A stretch of 64,000 bases of DNA from Dehalococcoidia bacterium (GTDB lineage Bacteria > Chloroflexota > Dehalococcoidia > Lucifugimonadales > UBA2985). Position numbers and translations under genes: made by a program. The stretch lies in assembly GCA_034421435.1 (NCBI GenBank), contig DAOUKJ010000069.1, forward strand, positions 22,013-86,012, in the 5' to 3' direction. This document shows, piece by piece, positions 3,508 to 51,960 of the stretch. The notes beneath the pieces were generated by a model. The model made no database searches, had not been told where the DNA came from, and saw only the letters and a program-made list of their open reading frames with translations. Within the stretch, counting starts at the first letter, position 1; every line of letters begins with the position of its first letter.

Positions 3508-3864
3508 CTACAGCATGATGAGTCTGGCGGGAACCAACCTTTGCCTGACCGGATCAACAGCCAGCCCCAGACCCTCCAACGTGTAGGCGCCGAGCACGGG
3601 CGGCGCGTTGTCCTCGCCGAACGCCACGAGGGTCACCTCGCTGTCCCCGTCGATCGTGGCCCACGCCCTGCCGATCTCCATGGTCATGCTGCTGCCGTCT
3701 GCGATGACGAATCTGCGGCTGTCTGTCGGTTCTACGCCGAGGTCGCGTAGCGTGCGAGCGGGCAGCATGGTCAAGAAGGCGCCAGTGTCCACCGTGGCCT
3801 CGATATCCAGGCTACGTTGGCCGTCCATGCTGGTTATGCGCAGCGGCCAAGTGAAGGTTCCCAT
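3508..3864 (-). CDS. Retropepsin-like (clan AA) aspartic protease, 118 aa
   Basis: Single-lobe aspartyl protease signature …IEATVDTGAFLTMLP… (D-T-G-A) in a ~120-aa protein. ATG is preceded by AGGAGG. Confidence 0.75.
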   Translation of the reverse strand: MGTFTWPLRITSMDGQRSLDIEATVDTGAFLTMLPARTLRDLGVEPTDSRRFVIADGSSMTMEIGRAWATIDGDSEVTLVAFGEDNAPPVLGAYTLEGLGLAVDPVRQRLVPARLIML

Positions 3865-3899
3865 TGCGGGTGCCTCCTAATCGGAGCAATCATGGGTAC

Positions 3900-3929
3900 A
3901 TTGTAGCCGATATTGGGCGCCTGTGTCAG
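3900..3929 (-). promoter_or_regulatory. Candidate sigma70-type promoter of the retropepsin gene (CTGACA-N18-TACAAT)
   Basis: Minus strand reads tttCTGACAcaggcgcccaatatcggcTACAATg, about 35 nt upstream of the ATG at 3864. Sequence match only. Confidence 0.4.
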
Positions 3930-4124
3930 AAATCAGGTCTGGTTCGGAGTATCGAGACCTCTAACTTAGGCCGATGTGGAGAGCGTGTAACGACGTTAGA
4001 CATCCCTTGTCAAGGGTCAAGCGCGGCAACAATAGCGACCTGGCTCTGGAATGTAGGTGAGTACGCAGTGATGCACTCCCAGATGTGCCCCTCTCGCGCT
4101 CGGCGGAGGTAGCAAAGCACTCGT

Positions 4125-4358
4125 TCAGCGCGAGCTCAGGTACGTCTGCGGCTCGTCCATCCAGTCCATCTCGTCGCACCCGTGGAACAGCGCCCAAAGG
4201 TCCTCCGGCGATTCTAGGGGCCTGACGCTGCGGCCTGCCTCCAAGCGCTGATTGGCAGCGGCCAGTAGCCACTCGCTGAGGGACTTGCCTTCACGGCGCG
4301 CCTGATCATCAAAGCGATCCTGTACCTCGTCAGGTATCACAAGTTCCACTCTGGCCAT
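4125..4358 (-). CDS. Ribbon-helix-helix (CopG/Arc-like) antitoxin-like protein, no adjacent toxin
   Basis: 77-aa ORF. N-terminus MARVELVIPDEVQDRFDDQARREGKSLSEWLLAAANQRL fits the beta-strand plus two-helix RHH pattern. SD-like GGTGAGGTG lies upstream. Confidence 0.55.
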   Translation of the reverse strand: MARVELVIPDEVQDRFDDQARREGKSLSEWLLAAANQRLEAGRSVRPLESPEDLWALFHGCDEMDWMDEPQTYLSSR

Positions 4359-4497
4359 GTTGTCACCTCACCTGCTGCGTTGAGAGTGTGCATCGACAGT
4401 AAATGCCATCACGTGTGAAGTCAACTTGTACGCTCCCCATCACGGCAACGCTGTGCGCAGAGCACGCGCCAGTTACAGCCCAACCAGCTCAGTGAGG

Positions 4498-4719
4498 CTA
4501 CAGAGTCTCGCAGAACTCGGATACGGTAAGGTCGGCAAGGCGTATCAGGCTCCGGAGTGTTCCTCTTGCTACAGTTGGGTGATTAGGCACCGACAGTGTT
4601 GCTAGGTGGCCCGGCTTCGTCATGATGATGTGACTGCCCCTCTGCCGTGCCACATTCCAGCCATGATTCTCAAAGGCACTTACTGTCTGCGCCCCGCTCA
4701 GCACGGGCAGAGGTGGCAC
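4498..4719 (-). CDS. hicA: HicA-family mRNA interferase toxin
   Basis: …FENHGWNVARQRGSHIIMTKPGH…TVARGTLRSLIRLADL… is the HicA/YcfA pattern. The ORF-track start (4791) lies inside hicB. A GTG at 4719..4717 overlaps the hicB TAG by 1 nt and gives a ~73-aa protein. Confidence 0.8.
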   Translation of the reverse strand: MPPLPVLSGAQTVSAFENHGWNVARQRGSHIIMTKPGHLATLSVPNHPTVARGTLRSLIRLADLTVSEFCETL

Positions 4720-4925
4720 TACAGCGTCACTTCTACTTGCTGCGTCTCGATTGTCAGAGGCAGACCCTGCTCGGCGCGCACCTCCATGCAAAGCGTGATG
4801 GCCTCACGGATGTTGGCCAGGGCCTGCTCCCTGGAATCACCCTGGCTGACGCAGCCTGGAATGGCTGGACACTCCACAATCCAAACACCGTCCTCGTCCC
4901 TGTCAATCGTCACCGAGAGCTTCAC
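4719..4925 (-). CDS. hicB: HicB-family antitoxin (UPF0150 fold)
   Basis: 68 aa, …DRDEDGVWIVECPAIPGCVSQGDSREQALANIREAI… is the classic HicB N-domain. GTG start with GGAGG 9 nt upstream. Confidence 0.8.
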   Translation of the reverse strand: MKLSVTIDRDEDGVWIVECPAIPGCVSQGDSREQALANIREAITLCMEVRAEQGLPLTIETQQVEVTL

Positions 4926-4996: not shown

Positions 4997-6361
4997 TCAC
5001 CCCGCAGCCGCGCGCAGCGCACGCGCCAGCGGCTCTTCCTGGCCTGGGAGCACGGTGCGTGGGTCGACGACCACCCTGTCGCCTTCGATGCGTGCGACGA
5101 CTGGCGGCTCTCCGGCTCTCAGCCGCGCGGCAAGGGCCTGCGCGCCTCCCGGCGAATCGCCCGAATCTATGGCCAGCAGCCACGTTGGAAGCGTCTCGCC
5201 CGGCAGGCTGCCTCCGCCCACGGTCGACAGGCCGCGCTCGACGCGGCCGCAGCCTGCGGCTTCCTGCAGCCTGAGGGCCGCCGCCTCCATGTCGTCGAGC
5301 GGAGCGGCGATCATCCGCCACACGGGAATCGCCTCCACAGCCTCGCCCTTCAGGTAGTGGACGAGCGTGGCCGTGAGGGCAGCCAGGCTGAGCTTGTCGA
5401 TTCGCATGGCCCGCGCCAGCGGATGACCCGCCAGGCGCGACACGGCCTCACGCTTCCCTACGATGATGCCGGCCTGTGGACCGCCAAGGAGCTTGTCGCC
5501 GGAGAAGCAGGCCAGGTCTACGCCCGCGTCCACGCTCTCCTGCACCATCGGCTCGTGCGCCAGGCCGAAGCGGGCGGTGTCCAGCAGGCAGCCGCTGCCC
5601 AGGTCGTGAATCACCGGCACGCCGTGGCGCGCGCCCATCTTCACCAGCTCGCCGGTGGTCGTCTCGTGGGTGAAGCCGGTGATGACGAAGTTGCTTGAGT
5701 GGACCTTGAGGAGCGCGCCCGTTTCGGCGCAGATCGCGCCCTCGTAGTCGGCGGCGTAGGTGCGGTTGGTGGTGCCCACCTCGCGCAGGACGGCGCCGCT
5801 GCGACTCAGCACGTCCGGTATGCGAAACCCGCCGCCGATCTCGACGGCCTCGCCGCGGGACACGACGACCTCCCGGCCGTACGCGATGGCCGACAGCGCG
5901 AGCAGGACGGCGGAGGCGTTGTTGTTCACGACCAGCGCCGCCTCTGCGCCAGTCAGGCGGCGCAGGATGCTCGATACGTGGGCCTGCCGCGAACCGCGTG
6001 TGCCATCCTTCAGGTCAAGCTCCAGGTCGGAGTAGGACGCGGCTGCGCGCGCGACGGTCTCGGTAGCCGCGTCGCTGAGAGGCGCGCGGCCAAGGTTGGT
6101 GTGCAGCACGACGCCCGTTGCGTTGATGACAGGCGCAGGCGCGGGTGCTAGCAGCGCAGCGGCCATGGCGCACACGTCCTCCACCAGCGCATTGAGCGTG
6201 GGCGGTGCGACGCCGTCGGTCACGCCGCGGCGGGCGTCCTCCAGACGCTCGCGCGCCAGGTCGGCCACCGTATCGTGGGAGACCTCCGCCGCTAGGGTGC
6301 GCAACCGCTCATCGGAGAGGAGCCTATCGACGCTCGGTATGCGCCTGTAGCCGGTTGACAT
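4997..6361 (-). CDS. selA: L-seryl-tRNA(Sec) selenium transferase
   Basis: 454 aa. IPSVDRLL N-terminus, INATGVVLHTNLGRAP, VVNNNASAVLL, VVSRGEAVEIGGGFRIPDV, EVGTTNRT, FSGDKLLGGPQAGIIVGK (PLP-Lys) all match SelA. Confidence 0.9.
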   Translation of the reverse strand: MSTGYRRIPSVDRLLSDERLRTLAAEVSHDTVADLARERLEDARRGVTDGVAPPTLNALVEDVCAMAAALLAPAPAPVINATGVVLHTNLGRAPLSDAATETVARAAASYSDLELDLKDGTRGSRQAHVSSILRRLTGAEAALVVNNNASAVLLALSAIAYGREVVVSRGEAVEIGGGFRIPDVLSRSGAVLREVGTTNRTYAADYEGAICAETGALLKVHSSNFVITGFTHETTTGELVKMGARHGVPVIHDLGSGCLLDTARFGLAHEPMVQESVDAGVDLACFSGDKLLGGPQAGIIVGKREAVSRLAGHPLARAMRIDKLSLAALTATLVHYLKGEAVEAIPVWRMIAAPLDDMEAAALRLQEAAGCGRVERGLSTVGGGSLPGETLPTWLLAIDSGDSPGGAQALAARLRAGEPPVVARIEGDRVVVDPRTVLPGQEEPLARALRAAAG

Positions 6362-12975: not shown

Positions 12976-13221
12976 CCCGCTCATATGGTTCGACAGGCTC
13001 ACCCCCGCATCGGGGTGCGGGGCAGGCTATGAGCGGGCCAACCCATCCCGCTCACCCCCGTATCAAGTACGGGGCAGGCTCTGAGCGGGCGAAGGGCTAG
13101 AGCGGGGTTTACCTTCCCGCTCAGATGGTTCGACACGCTCACCATGAGCGGGCTTTGGAGGCTCACCACAAGTAGCCCACCCATCCCGCTCACCCTGAGC
13201 ATGTCGAAGGGCGTGAACGGG
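12976..13221. repeat. Cluster of four REP-like hairpin units
   Basis: Units at 12976..13037 (composite with inner hairpin ccccgcatcggggtgcgggg), 13047..13089, 13116..13152 and 13184..13221. All are bounded by CCCGCTCA…TGA(G/A)CGGG. Confidence 0.85.
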
Positions 13222-13935: not shown

Positions 13936-13957
13936 TTCGGTGTCCGCCGGGCGCGGC

Positions 13958-14806
13958 TCAGTCGCCGGCGTCTTCACCGGCTGCCGGCTCCTCCTTCGGG
14001 TCGCACTTGCGCGCGGTGGTGATGAAGCCGGTGTGCGCGATCATCCGGTGCGCCGGCCTCACGCTGCGCCTCGTAACCGACCACGGTCTTGTGAGCACCT
14101 CCACGGTCTCCATCATCTCGAAGTTGGGGTTCTCGGCCAGCGCCTCGTAGAGCTGGTACACCTGGAGTATGGTCGGCAGGTAGCCGAGGAAGATGCCGCC
14201 GGGCGCCAGCGACACGGCCGCGTGCGGCACAACGTGCCACGGCTCCGGCACGTCCAGCACGATGCGGTCCAGCCCCGTCTCCTCGACGCCCTCGTACACG
14301 TCCTTCAACCTGACCTCCAGGTTGGCTGCCTGCGGGACCAGCGTGTGGATGTTGGCCTTTGCACCATCGAACAGCTCCGGCCTGATCTCGTAGGTGGTGA
14401 CGTGGCCGCGCTCGCCGACGGCCCTCAGCAGCGCGATGGTGAGCGCGCCGGAGCCCAGGCCCGCCTCCAGCACGCGCGCTCCGGGGAATATGTCGCCGTG
14501 CATCAGGATGGCGCCCAGGTCCTTGCCGTAGATCACCTGGGTCTGGTGTGGCATCTCCTCCACGAAGTCGCCGAGCGTGGGCGAGAAGGCCAGCAGCACA
14601 TGGCCGGTTGTGGTGTTCAGGCGTGCGCCCTGCGTGCGGCCTATCAGGTCGTTGTGGTCGATGGCGCCCACGTGCGTGTGGAACGACTTGTACCTCTCGA
14701 GCGTTATGAGGTAGCGCCTGCCGCGCCTGTCCACCAGGAGAGCGGGGTCGCCCTCGGCAAACGGGCGCGGCCCATTCAGGCCGTCAGGGCTATCGGCGGG
14801 TGCCAT
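13958..14806 (-). CDS. trmI: tRNA (adenine58-N1)-methyltransferase
   Basis: 282 aa. GCD14/TrmI N-domain (…RYLITLERYKSFHTHVGAIDHNDLIG…) and SAM motif VLEAGLGSGALT. Confidence 0.85.
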   Translation of the reverse strand: MAPADSPDGLNGPRPFAEGDPALLVDRRGRRYLITLERYKSFHTHVGAIDHNDLIGRTQGARLNTTTGHVLLAFSPTLGDFVEEMPHQTQVIYGKDLGAILMHGDIFPGARVLEAGLGSGALTIALLRAVGERGHVTTYEIRPELFDGAKANIHTLVPQAANLEVRLKDVYEGVEETGLDRIVLDVPEPWHVVPHAAVSLAPGGIFLGYLPTILQVYQLYEALAENPNFEMMETVEVLTRPWSVTRRSVRPAHRMIAHTGFITTARKCDPKEEPAAGEDAGD

Positions 14807-14827
14807 GCGAGAGCGCGGCGGAGTCGG

Positions 14828-15286
14828 CTAAAGCCGGTCCAGCTCCTCCAGGATCTCCTTGGGATCGGGCAGGCCCTGCGTGTAGACCCTCTTGTACCTG
14901 ATGACGCCCTCTTTGTCGATGATGATGACGGCGCGCATGGTGACGCCCCGCTCCTCGTTGTAGATGCCGAACAGCTGCGACACGTAGCCCTTGGGATGGA
15001 AGTCGGCCAGGAGTGGGTAGGGCAGGTTGCCCAGGCCCGTTGCGAAGGCCCTCTGCGTGGGTGCGCTGTCGACGCTCATGCCCAGAACCTGGGCATCCTT
15101 CTCCTCGAACCGGCGGTTCTCCAGCCGGAACCCGGAGCACTGGTGCGTTCAACCGCCTGTGAAGGACAGGACGTGCGTCTGAAGGACCACGATCTTCTGC
15201 CCGAGGTACTGGCTCAGGGTGACGTCCTCGCCCGTGTGGGAGCGGAGTGTAAAGTCGGGCGCCTTGTCTCCTACTTCTGCCGGCAT
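14828..15286 (-). CDS. Peroxiredoxin (AhpE/BCP-like) with in-frame UGA (Sec) at the peroxidatic position; 152 aa if UGA is decoded
   Basis: ORFs 15149..15478 (real ATG 15286, AGGAGG 6 nt upstream) and 14828..15079 are in one frame. They are separated only by TGA 15151..15149 and 23 open codons: …VLSFTGG-U-THQCSGFRLENRRFEEKDAQVLG-MSVDSAP…AVIIIDKEGVIRY…. Confidence 0.75.
15110..15143 (-). promoter_or_regulatory. Candidate bacterial SECIS hairpin downstream of the UGA
   Basis: The RNA after UGA can fold in two ways. One is CCAG(UGCU)CCGG-GUU-CCGG-CUGG (nt +9..+31). The other is CCGGC-UGGAGAACC-GCCGG (+24..+42). Both have G-containing apical loops about 18-27 nt from the UGA. Hand-folded only. 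Confidence 0.4.
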
Positions 15287-15398
15287 GGGAGACCTCCTGT
15301 AGGTGATGCGTGCATTATACCTGAATGGGCGAGGTCTTGCGATGCTGCGGCGGATGCAACCGTCCGTTAGCCTTAGGCGGCTGACGGATATCAGCCTT

Positions 15399-15839
15399 GG
15401 CCCGCTCATGGTGAGCCGGTCGAACCATATGGGCGGGCCATCGAGCAAATGCGGCTGTTCGCTCACTCCCTTCGACAAGCTCAGGGTGAGCGGACAATCT
15501 CGGCCCCCTCATGGTGGGCCTGTCGAACCATATGGGCGGGCCATCGAGCAAATGTGCCCGTCCGCTCACGCCCTTCGACAAGCTAAGGGTGAGCGGATAA
15601 TCTCGGCCCGCTCATGGTGAGCCTGTCGAACCATATGGGCGGGCCATCGAGCAAATGCGACCTTCCACTCACTCCCCTCGACAAGCTCATGGTGAGCGGT
15701 TAGTCTCGGCCCGCTCATTGCTGCATTCGCAAGCCCGCTCATGGTGAGCCCAGTCGAACCAGATGAGCGGGCGGGCGGGTGTGCTAGCCGGTACAGCACG
15801 CCCCGCTCACGCTGAGCTTGTCGAAGCGGGTGAGCGGGG
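15399..15839. repeat. Tandem array: 3 x 103-bp units (15399, 15502, 15605), each made of two REP-like hairpins, plus 2-3 further single units
   Basis: The unit start ggcccgctcatgg recurs at 15399, 15502, 15605 and 15708 (period 103). Additional units are at 15734..15770 and 15801..15839. Confidence 0.9.
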
Positions 15840-23457: not shown

Positions 23458-26124
23458 ATGTTGGAGACCGAAACCAGGGTGGCAACCGTGCCAAGGGCGC
23501 TGGACGGCATCCGCGTCCTGGACTTCACGTGGGTCCGAGCAGGGCCTTGGTGCAACCGGTGGCTGGGCGCTCTTGGCGCCGAGGTCATCAAGGTGGAGTG
23601 GCCCCAGAGCCCCAACACCCGGGGCATAGGCGGGCAGCCCGTGCCGGGATTCGAGCCGACTCTGAACACCTCCGGCCACTTCAGCGACACCAACGCCAAC
23701 AAGCTCAGCATTACGCTGAACACCCGCACGCCGCGCGGCCAGGACCTGGTCAGGCAGCTCGTGTCCGTGTCCGACATCGTGATCGAGAACTTCGCCTACG
23801 GCGTGCTCGACCGGTGGGGCTTGGGCTATGAGGAGATGAAGAAGCTGCGGCCCGACATTATCTACCTGTCGATGTCCGGCTTCGGTCACACCGGCCGCGA
23901 CCGGGACTACCAAACGATGGGCCCCATAGCACAGGCGCTGTCCGGCCTGACGTACACGTCCGGCCTGCCGGGTGAGCAGCCCGCTGGCTGGGGCTGGTCG
24001 TACATGGACGACACCGGAGGCTACTTCGGCGCCATCTACGCGCTGAGCGCGCTGTATCACCGCAACGTGACGGGCGAGGGCCAGCACGTCGATCAGTCGC
24101 AGTGGATAACCGGCGTTCCCTTGAACGGCGCGGTGTTCCTGGACATGCAGGCAAACGAGCGCTCCTCGATCCGGGAGGGTTACCCGCCCGGCAACCGCGC
24201 CCACTGGCCTGGGACGCCCCTGCTGAACGCCTACCGCGAGCGCACGGTTGCGCCCCACAACGCCTATCGCACCAGCCCCGGCGGCTACAACGACTGGTGC
24301 ACCATCGTCTGCGTGACCGACCGCGAGTGGCAGAGCCTGGTTGAGGTCATGGGATCGCCGCCGTGGGCCAAGGACTCGAAGTTCGACACGCTGTCCGGCA
24401 GGCTGGCGAACCAGGAAGAGCTGGACGCAGGCATCGAGGCTTGGACGCAGACGCTGGACAAGTACGACATCATGGAGCGGTGCCAGAGGGCGGGCGTGCC
24501 CTCCATGCCCGTCCAGAGCAACGAGGACCGCTTCGAGAACGACGCGCAGCTTCAGGCACGCGAGATGTTCAAGGACATGACGCACCCCGTGCTCGGCACG
24601 TGGCCGTTGCAGAACTCGCCGTTCAAGATGTCGGAGACGCCCGTGTACAACCATCAGACCGGGCCGCTGGTCGGGCAGCACAACAAGGACGTGTTCGAGG
24701 GACTGCTGGGCATAAGCCACGAGGAGCTGGTGGACGGCTTTGGAGACGGCACCTTCTGGCCCAAGGACATGGATCGCTCTCCGTACCCGTACCTGCAGGA
24801 GATGATCGACGACGGGACGGCGCCGGAGTGGACGGGTCAACCCAAGGGCCCGATTGCAGCGCCCGCGCCCACACGCACGCCGGACGCGGAGACGAATGGG
24901 GCGTTCAGCGGCCTGCGCGTGCTGGAGCTCTCGGACGAGAAGGGGCAGTGGGCCGGCAAGCTCATGGGTGACCTGGGCGCCGACGTCATCAAGATCGAGC
25001 CTCCCGGAGGCCAGACTACGCGCACCATTGGGCCGTTCTACCAGGACATGCCCGACCGCGAGAAGAGCCTCTACTTCTGGCACTACAACACCTCCAAGCG
25101 CGGCATCACGCTGGACCTGGAGACGGAGGACGGCCGCTGTCTGTTCCGCAAGCTGGCGGAGGGCGCGGACGTGATACTGGAGACGTTCAACCCCGGCTAC
25201 ATGGCCTCGCTCGGCCTGGGCTACGACGACCTGAAGGAGTCCAACCCCGGCCTGATCATGTGCTCGCTAACCTCCTTCGGCCAGACGGGGCCGTGGAAGG
25301 ACTACGTGGGCAACGACCTGCTGCACCTTGCGGCGGGCGGCCAGATGGCCTGCTGCGGCTACTCGGACGAGGACCTGCCCGGAGCGCCTCCAATCGCGCC
25401 GGGCGGAGGCCAAGCGTGGCACACCGGCAGCCACTTCGCCTGCATCGGCATCATCTCTGCGCTGATGCACCGCACGCGCACGGGCAAGGGTCAGTACATC
25501 GACACCTCCGTGCACGAGTCGTGCGCGCTGACCACGGAGATGCACGTCAACACCTGGATCTACGGCAAGCAGGTTGTGCAGCGTCAGACGGGTCGTCACG
25601 CTGCCGCGCAGCCCAACCAGAAGTCCCAGCACATGTGCGGCGACGGCAAGTTCGTCAACGTGGGCGCACAGATCGTCACGCGCATCACCGGCGAGCAGCT
25701 CAAGGTGCTCCGCGGCTGGTACGAGGAGCTTGGCCTGCCCGTCGACCTGATCGACGAGAAGGAGCGAGACCCGGAGGTCATCACCGACAACGAGCTGTTC
25801 ATGATGCTGCTGGCCAGCGCCACCCGCGACCAGATCTACCACGGCGGGCAGAAGCGGGGCTTCAACCTGGGCGCAGTCCGCGCTCCCGACGAGGTGATGG
25901 AGGACCCGCACCTGGAGGACCGCGGCTTCTGGACAGCCGTGGAGCAGCCGCAGGTCGGCAAGAGCTTCCTTCATCCCGGACCAGCGGGCATCTTCAACGG
26001 TTCGCCGTGGCGCATCTCCCGGCGCGCTCCCATGGTCGGCGAGCACAATGAAGAGGTGCTGTGCGGAGAGCTTGGCCTCAGCCGCGCTGAGCTGGCCGTC
26101 CTGGCCGAGAGCGGAGCGGTCTAG
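23458..26124 (+). CDS. Fusion of two family-III (CaiB/BaiF/Frc-type) CoA-transferase modules, 888 aa
   Basis: Module 1 begins LDGIRVLDFTWVRAGPWCNRWLGALGAEVIKVE. Module 2 begins FSGLRVLELSDEKGQWAGKLMGDLGADVIKIE (about residue 478). Each continues through the …HR..TG.GQ.(V/I)D.S… segment. Confidence 0.85.
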   Translation: MLETETRVATVPRALDGIRVLDFTWVRAGPWCNRWLGALGAEVIKVEWPQSPNTRGIGGQPVPGFEPTLNTSGHFSDTNANKLSITLNTRTPRGQDLVRQLVSVSDIVIENFAYGVLDRWGLGYEEMKKLRPDIIYLSMSGFGHTGRDRDYQTMGPIAQALSGLTYTSGLPGEQPAGWGWSYMDDTGGYFGAIYALSALYHRNVTGEGQHVDQSQWITGVPLNGAVFLDMQANERSSIREGYPPGNRAHWPGTPLLNAYRERTVAPHNAYRTSPGGYNDWCTIVCVTDREWQSLVEVMGSPPWAKDSKFDTLSGRLANQEELDAGIEAWTQTLDKYDIMERCQRAGVPSMPVQSNEDRFENDAQLQAREMFKDMTHPVLGTWPLQNSPFKMSETPVYNHQTGPLVGQHNKDVFEGLLGISHEELVDGFGDGTFWPKDMDRSPYPYLQEMIDDGTAPEWTGQPKGPIAAPAPTRTPDAETNGAFSGLRVLELSDEKGQWAGKLMGDLGADVIKIEPPGGQTTRTIGPFYQDMPDREKSLYFWHYNTSKRGITLDLETEDGRCLFRKLAEGADVILETFNPGYMASLGLGYDDLKESNPGLIMCSLTSFGQTGPWKDYVGNDLLHLAAGGQMACCGYSDEDLPGAPPIAPGGGQAWHTGSHFACIGIISALMHRTRTGKGQYIDTSVHESCALTTEMHVNTWIYGKQVVQRQTGRHAAAQPNQKSQHMCGDGKFVNVGAQIVTRITGEQLKVLRGWYEELGLPVDLIDEKERDPEVITDNELFMMLLASATRDQIYHGGQKRGFNLGAVRAPDEVMEDPHLEDRGFWTAVEQPQVGKSFLHPGPAGIFNGSPWRISRRAPMVGEHNEEVLCGELGLSRAELAVLAESGAV

Positions 26125-51785: not shown

Positions 51786-51960
51786 TCCGCTCACGCCCTT
51801 CGACACGCTCAGGGTGAGCGGACGGGCGATTAACCCGCCCATAGCCTGCCCCATACTTGATGCGGGGGTGAGCGGGCGCGCGATAAGCTCGCTCACGGTG
51901 AAGATTAGCGGACGCGTTAGGGGCCCGCTCATGGTGAGCCTGTCGAACCATTTGAGCGGG
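51786..51960. repeat. Three REP-like hairpin units
   Basis: 51786..51822, 51834..51876 (inner ccccatacttgatgcggggg) and 51924..51960 (cccgctcatggtgagcctgtcgaaccatttgagcggg). Confidence 0.8.

Follow-up and report, generated by a model that had tools for sequence, protein, structure and literature searches.

On the minus strand of the 64,000-nt stretch of Dehalococcoidia DNA analysed here (the window), two short open reading frames (ORFs) lie one behind the other, separated by a UGA codon, and each of them resembles only part of a peroxiredoxin. The question raised by this locus is whether the UGA ends translation, is a defect in a dead or badly assembled gene, or is decoded as an amino acid and, if so, which one. 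The analysis described below leads to the view that the two called ORFs are very probably one gene (prx) for an AhpE-like (1-Cys-type) peroxiredoxin, in which a peroxidatic selenocysteine (Sec) would be inserted co-translationally at UGA codon 46.

One frame and its product

Translation of the minus strand from 15286 to 14828 gives 152 codons followed by TAG, with the TGA at 15151..15149 as the sole internal stop. Around this codon the frame reads VLSFTGG*THQCSGFRLENRRFEEKDAQVLGM, and the residues on either side of it are MPAEVGDKAPDFTLRSHTGEDVTLSQYLGQKIVVLQTHVLSFTGG*THQCSGFRLENRRFEEKDAQVLGMSVDS. A mechanical ORF list breaks the frame in two, with one ORF that ends at 15149 and an 83-aa ORF (14828..15079) in the same frame. 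The first-pass annotation had proposed that the two ORFs are one interrupted frame, that the codons leading from the TGA into the ATG of the second ORF are free of stops, and that an AGGAGG lies 6 nt 5' of the ATG at 15286; the translation and the upstream sequence bear out all of this (Table 1). In the orthologues translation would begin with the same Met, which in several of them is closely preceded by stop codons. A TATAAT hexamer is present upstream of prx at 15319..15314, while scans for consensus promoters and terminators around the gene returned nothing and did not call the hexamer as a promoter.

When Cys is substituted for the internal stop, the read-through product is recognized over nearly its whole length as the AhpC/TSA protein that had been predicted. 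Pfam AhpC-TSA (PF00578) spans the UGA, covering aa 5-131 of 152 (E 1.8e-31; 109 bits, cutoff 26), and the closest solved structure in a PDB search is AhpE of M. tuberculosis (E 5e-26 over 133 residues). All top seven PDB matches are AhpE-type chains (E 3e-27 to 3e-25), six of them entries of M. tuberculosis AhpE (Rv2238c) and the seventh, 4xih, labelled only 'AhpC/TSA family protein'; the next-best peroxiredoxin classes follow at E values of at least 8e-19. Since ...lsftggCthq... of the window aligns over ...laftgiCqge... of AhpE, residue 46 comes to stand opposite the peroxidatic Cys45. It is also opposite a Cys in three full-length homologues (P0002, P0004 and P0040, codon TGC or TGT) and in 10 genomic loci, and the UGA is therefore placed where it had been supposed to lie, at the peroxidatic position. 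Thr43 and Arg118 are both found in the alignments, including that with AhpE.

The active site has some peculiarities. The Pro of the PxxxTxxC/U motif is Val39 in the window (15170-15172), and Val or Ile replaces it in much of the window's clade (L001-L041), in Sec and Cys forms alike, according to the pattern [HY]-[VI]-x-x-F-T-G-G-U. The Sec forms of Thermoanaerobaculia retain the Pro. As for the Cys four residues after U to which attention had been drawn, it is indeed present in the window (Cys50) but belongs to a single subclade and is not a feature of the family: the sequence THQC is restricted to the closest relatives (L001-L009, L026 and L081), and in other clades its place is taken by V, A, L or M. 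No resolving Cys is conserved across the whole family and, with Cys50 lacking outside this subclade, its members in general would be 1-Cys enzymes of the AhpE type. In two TGA forms (L011 and L013) a Cys immediately follows the Sec codon, F-T-G-G-U-C-D-Q, unlike the U-x3-C of the window, and a comparison of these sequences suggests that resolving residues may have evolved separately.

Table 1. Positions of prx, its predicted RNA element and other features of the window
Feature	Position	Strand	Remarks
Predicted Sec-peroxiredoxin gene, 152 aa	14828..15286	-	ATG 15286..15284; stop TAG 14830..14828; Sec = residue 46
UGA codon 46, peroxidatic position, F-T-G-G-U (TxxU)	15149..15151	-	Predicted to be read as Sec
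Cys50 codon (U-T-H-Q-C)	15137..15139	-	Possible resolving Cys, window's subclade only
Arg118 codon, conserved peroxiredoxin active-site Arg	14933..14935	-	Invariant in alignment A1; aligns with AhpE Arg
Thr43 codon	15160..15158	-	Conserved catalytic residue
Shine-Dalgarno AGGAGG	15293..15298	-	6 nt before ATG 15286; assigned from sequence
SECIS-like stem-loop within the coding sequence	15101..15137	-	MFE -18.1 kcal/mol; 12-48 nt downstream of UGA
Lower stem CUCC/GGAG	15137..15134 with 15104..15101	-	
Upper stem CCGGC(U)GG/CCGCCGG	15128..15121 with 15116..15110	-	7 bp, one bulged U
Apical loop AGAA	15120..15117	-	4 nt, G second, 28 nt after UGA
TrmI/GCD14-like methyltransferase	13958..14806	-	21 nt past prx stop; conserved neighbour
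selA, L-seryl-tRNA(Sec) selenium transferase	4997..6361	-	NCBIfam TIGR00474 equivalog, 551.5 bits (cutoff 267.9), full length
Palindromic core, six copies	13186-13220, 15459-15493, 15562-15596, 15665-15699, 15803-15837, 51787-51821		

The prx gene and the methyltransferase gene behind it are probably part of one operon; the order prx, methyltransferase, HD-domain gene is found in many Dehalococcoidia loci, including those with the Cys form (L084-L086). The intergenic region upstream of prx (15396-15772) contains a 103-nt repeat in 3-4 tandem copies, each of which holds a 35-nt palindromic core (CCGCTCAC..TTCGACAAGCT..GTGAGCGG). This core occurs six times in the window, where none would be expected by chance, apparently mostly between genes, and it looks like a REP-like intergenic element. 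The repeat also yields spurious ORFs (...FDRLTMSGPRLSAHPELVEGSE...). On the plus strand, a 476-aa ORF with a GTG start (13940-15370) runs antisense to prx and the methyltransferase gene and could mislead gene callers; GC-rich DNA often has spurious antisense ORFs, and this is almost certainly one of them. Elsewhere in the window, an 888-aa ORF (23458-26124, plus strand) comprises two stretches matched by CoA-transferase family III (PF02515, E 6e-177), as if two such enzymes had been fused in tandem.

The catalytic codon and the RNA that follows it

The protein search returned 2,914 relatives of the window prx, and a genomic scan restricted to one genome per species yielded 80 related loci. At the catalytic codon 70 of these loci have TGA, as does the window itself, and the other 10 have TGC; TAA or TAG never occurs. 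An in-frame TGA that is found at the same codon in 70/80 loci, and never as another stop, is not there by chance. The TGA forms stem from Dehalococcoidia/SAR202, Anaerolineae, Armatimonadota, Thermoanaerobaculia and other Acidobacteriota, and Planctomycetota. Residues 6-45, before the TGA, are 51% identical to the window in the 70 TGA loci and residues 47-106, after it, 54%, and neither segment contains a single further stop codon. The two flanks of the UGA are thus conserved to an equal degree as protein. The closest locus (L001, from the Dehalococcoidia MAG contig DAOUJC010000006.1) has about 95% DNA identity, and L001, L002, L003 and L026 carry the same TGA with an identical stretch of 63 nt downstream. 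Altogether the homologue set consists of about 70 TGA and 13 Cys-codon (TGC/TGT) forms.

SECIS-like hairpins had been suggested 3' of the UGA, with loops about 18-27 nt away from it. Window positions 15137..15101 have ((((..(..(((((.((....)))))))..)..)))) as their minimum-energy fold, with the energy given in Table 1. Compared with dinucleotide shuffles, the z value of the window sequence is -1.88 for this 37-nt element and -2.69 for its 19-nt upper hairpin. Longer post-UGA segments of the window alone have no excess stability over such shuffles (z -0.16 for 71 nt and -0.95 for 57 nt) and, since these single-sequence folds are indistinguishable from shuffled ones, the case for a stem-loop rests on comparative tests.

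One of these tests is based on a null model in which synonymous codons are permuted within the gene so that protein, codon usage and GC content stay unchanged, applied to the 48 nt from +10 to +57. Among the TGA genes (63 unique sequences) the mean z is -2.05 and 65% have z < -1.64, as against -0.25 and 20% among the TGC genes (10 unique sequences; Mann-Whitney p 4e-4 for TGA vs TGC). The window prx itself has a z of -2.04. Folded clade by clade, every TGA clade has a consensus stem-loop with an alifold energy of -7 to -12 kcal/mol, which the TGC set practically lacks (-0.4). When one fixed pairing register is laid over all 63 unique TGA sequences, 50% of the positions pair; different stem-loops are used by the clades, and the structure was therefore analysed for each clade separately.

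In a gapless alignment of 25 sequences from the window's clade and its sister clade, a 13-pair structure is 76.6% paired vs 37-53% with slid partners. Both-sided changes affect 7 of the pairs (for instance CCGG/CCGG -> CAGG/CCUG), and the covariation was reached by 0/500 column shuffles. In Thermoanaerobaculia, pairing of the apical helix reaches 100%, and five pairs have been swapped from CG to GC and one from GC to AU; the first two loop nucleotides, 27 nt past the UGA, are always GA. Compensatory base changes are thus found in two independent clades, that of the window and Thermoanaerobaculia. A conserved hairpin at the orthologous loci, the absence of which had been listed as an argument against Sec, does exist in the TGA forms and covaries. 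What did not survive of the original suggestion is the identity of the hairpin and the position of its loop: the element with comparative support is longer, and its apical loop is 28 nt from the UGA. In silico, the window element (15137..15101) has all four properties that PMC13188914 gives as requirements of a bSECIS. A home-made scan for the bSECIS pattern with a limit of -7.5 kcal/mol, passed by 17% of the TGA and 8% of the TGC/TGT loci, separates the two groups weakly; it is too crude and was given no weight.

A smaller hairpin, CCGG-GUU-CCGG, whose loop is some 17 nt away from the UGA and which is probably the one meant in the first-pass annotation, was considered and rejected: it is 61% paired, 69/500 shuffles score as high, and it has no covariation support. 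Among the TGC forms, L083 (5001-5462; P0004) keeps the stem-loop of its TGA relatives, with a synonymous-permutation z of -3.7. Judged from its sequence, this stem-loop looks like a fossil SECIS that a recent Sec-to-Cys switch may have left behind.

Rival readings, annotation errors and a possible mechanism

In the databases, relatives of prx are misrepresented in two ways. The first is truncation: 41 of the best 120 of the 2,914 relatives are C-terminal fragments of 83-102 aa from Chloroflexi/SAR202 metagenome bins, named 'redoxin domain-containing protein' or 'AhpC' in their sources, in agreement with the initial expectation that standard callers would split the gene. The second is mistranslation. 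Five full-length relatives (P0001, P0003, P0005, P0006 and P0011) have Trp at the catalytic column, and the DNA of P0001 (L081 424-978) reveals that its 'W' is a TGA read by translation table 4; this call also runs past the true TGA stop of the gene, which adds a false 30-aa tail. Table-4 Trp calls are a second type of mis-annotation besides truncation.

A pseudogene in which a former Cys codon has turned into nonsense and neither half is functional, or a TGA owed to faulty sequencing or assembly, would need no more than a single-base change from TGC, the codon that 10/80 relatives do have. However, TGA recurs here in 70 assemblies that are independent of each other and cover several phyla, TAA and TAG do not occur at all, both halves are under protein-level conservation without further stops, and a structured RNA accompanies the TGA forms. 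Recurrence of TGA only, combined with conservation of both halves, leaves this explanation practically excluded. It is also extremely improbable that the gene callers are right and that two separate short proteins are made, an N-terminal one of 45 aa and a C-terminal one of 83 aa restarted at the ATG at 15079, even though the callers output exactly such pieces and fragments of this kind abound among the best matches. The artificial starts chosen by the callers vary, giving 83, 85, 98 or 99 aa; the Met of the 83-aa ORF (Met70) is Ile or Leu in most orthologues (GISVD) and is therefore not a conserved start; and the 23 codons between the TGA and this ATG are conserved in frame. Moreover, neither fragment has a complete peroxiredoxin active site because T43 and U46 lie in one half and R118 in the other, which agrees with the early judgement that neither half alone is a plausible peroxiredoxin.

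There remains the manner in which the UGA is read. It could be decoded without Sec, either because the code is reassigned (TGA = Trp or Gly) or because near-cognate tRNAs suppress the stop (Trp/Cys/Arg), and Cys at this place would give a sulfur enzyme. The public calls with W at the UGA seem to favour such a reading, but they are accounted for by table 4. A further point is that the Sec machinery is incomplete in the 64-kb window: ARAGORN and Rfam gave only tRNA-Arg and no tRNA-Sec (selC), and Pfam and NCBIfam scans of the ~45 long ORFs found neither selB nor selD. One component, selA, is present about 8.5 kb from prx, as the first-pass annotation had stated, and is an equivalog of its family (Table 1). 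The stop codons of the 45 long ORFs are TAG in 30 cases, TGA in 12 and TAA in 3 and, since the TGA group includes selA and folC, the genetic code is not reassigned. Against decoding without Sec there is also the fact that Cys is the only sense codon at the site, which makes a classic Sec/Cys pair, and the conserved RNA structure is specific to the TGA forms. All this makes a read-through without Sec very unlikely.

Some further observations concern the surroundings of selA and the stop codons of the window. No selB is located next to selA; small ORFs follow directly downstream instead (3508-4925, minus strand), in which a HicA/HicB-type toxin-antitoxin-like pair (4498-4791 and 4719-4925), a small antitoxin-like ORF (4125-4358) and a retropepsin-like ORF (3508-3864) can be made out by eye. 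The GC content of the window is 64.5%; TAG as the commonest stop seems unusual for a genome of this composition and may be connected with the use of UGA for Sec. When the window was searched blindly for further ORFs interrupted by TGA, the outcome was 328 candidates, a noisy result at such a GC content, and none was obviously real besides prx.

The comparative evidence, that is, the 70 TGA and 10 TGC loci, the conservation of both halves and the UGA-linked RNA, speaks very strongly for a reading of codon 46 as Sec. By analogy with the known bacterial pathway we infer for the window prx the insertion of Sec, the binding of SelB, a role for Cys50 and the nature of the reductant. In the proposed pathway, SelA would convert Ser-tRNA(Sec) to Sec-tRNA(Sec), and SelB would bind the mRNA stem-loop 12-48 nt past the UGA and bring Sec-tRNA(Sec) to the ribosome, where UGA46 would be decoded. 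In the finished enzyme Thr43 and Arg118 would activate the selenolate of U46, which would reduce hydroperoxides and become a selenenic acid, possibly resolved in the window's subclade as a selenenylsulfide with Cys50. Final recycling of U46 would fall to a thioredoxin- or glutaredoxin-type reductant. AhpE is recycled by mycoredoxin/mycothiol, and mycoredoxin is the JGI name given to some homologues; no reductant partner of prx was identified in the 64-kb window.

The prx gene reveals no new mechanism: it is biologically ordinary and useful as an annotation correction, being a clean and well-supported case in which standard annotation cuts up or mistranslates a selenoprotein. Its correct annotation would mark this Dehalococcoidia lineage as selenium-using, which bears on trace-element ecology and on oxidative-stress defence. 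In addition, the TGA and TGC/TGT homologues with their clade-specific candidate SECIS elements should help in the training of SECIS and selenoprotein predictors and in work on the exchange of Sec and Cys.

Relation to known Sec-peroxiredoxins

The occurrence of Sec in peroxiredoxins (Prx) is not new, a point on which the first-pass annotation was correct. A Sec-peroxiredoxin was first shown biochemically with PrxU of Eubacterium acidaminophilum (Sohling et al. 2001, as cited in PMC13188914, reference 83), and Sec-Prx with a TxxU site have been found by comparative genomics in many bacteria and in marine metagenomes, where they are abundant (PMC1088965, PMC1794560). The survey of PMC1794560 catalogues the family across bacterial phyla and records selenoproteins, of families that it leaves unspecified, in Chloroflexi and Acidobacteria. 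The TxxU family can thus be regarded as established (PMC1088965, PMC1794560, PMC13188914). A literature search on AhpE and selenocysteine and on SAR202 and selenoproteins found nothing specific to an AhpE-like Sec branch.

With the known family the window prx has in common the AhpC/TSA fold, the T-x-x-U site, widespread Cys homologues and a stem-loop inside the ORF after the UGA. It differs from known Sec-Prx in that it represents a short, AhpE-like branch in which the Pro of PxxxTxxU is Val or Ile in its clade, and it is no orthologue of PrxU (NCBIfam NF040737, 62.2 bits vs a cutoff of 270). It is likewise far from the thiol peroxidase selenoprotein Prx-SUH (NCBIfam NF045827, 33.8 bits vs a cutoff of 298). 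Prx-SUH and the Prx-like UxxC selenoproteins, which are thiol:disulfide oxidoreductases, resemble it in being peroxidases of the thioredoxin-fold type that standard gene callers miss, but the Prx-like proteins have a thioredoxin-type UxxC site whereas the window prx has TxxU at the Prx peroxidatic position (PMC1088965). The 1-Cys enzyme AhpE of M. tuberculosis (Rv2238c; PDB 1XXU, 1XVW) is similar in length (~153 aa) and in the active-site Thr and Arg, which are kept. It uses Cys, whereas the window prx, of Dehalococcoidia origin, would use Sec and has an extra Cys four residues on.

There is about an even chance that these genes make up a distinct AhpE-like branch of Sec-peroxiredoxins that has had no separate description. 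Such a branch would be characterized by a [HY]-[VIP]-x-x-F-T-G-G-U site, with the Pro often lost, and by U-x3-C in one subclade, and would extend over Chloroflexota (including SAR202), Acidobacteriota, Armatimonadota and Planctomycetota. The SECIS would have evolved a shape of its own in each clade, Sec and Cys would have been exchanged repeatedly, as the putative fossil SECIS of L083 illustrates, and the branch would lie outside the current NCBIfam selenoprotein models, so that hundreds of database entries would be truncated or mistranslated.

As for the RNA, the element of the window conforms to the E. coli fdhF-type SECIS and to the bSECIS model of Zhang and Gladyshev, as these are presented in PMC13188914, in that its stem-loop lies inside the ORF past the UGA. 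It has no sequence similarity to the E. coli SECIS elements, and shape and register vary between the clades of the Prx family to which the window gene belongs. The window prx is a new member, from the AhpE-like branch, of the established Sec-peroxiredoxin family.
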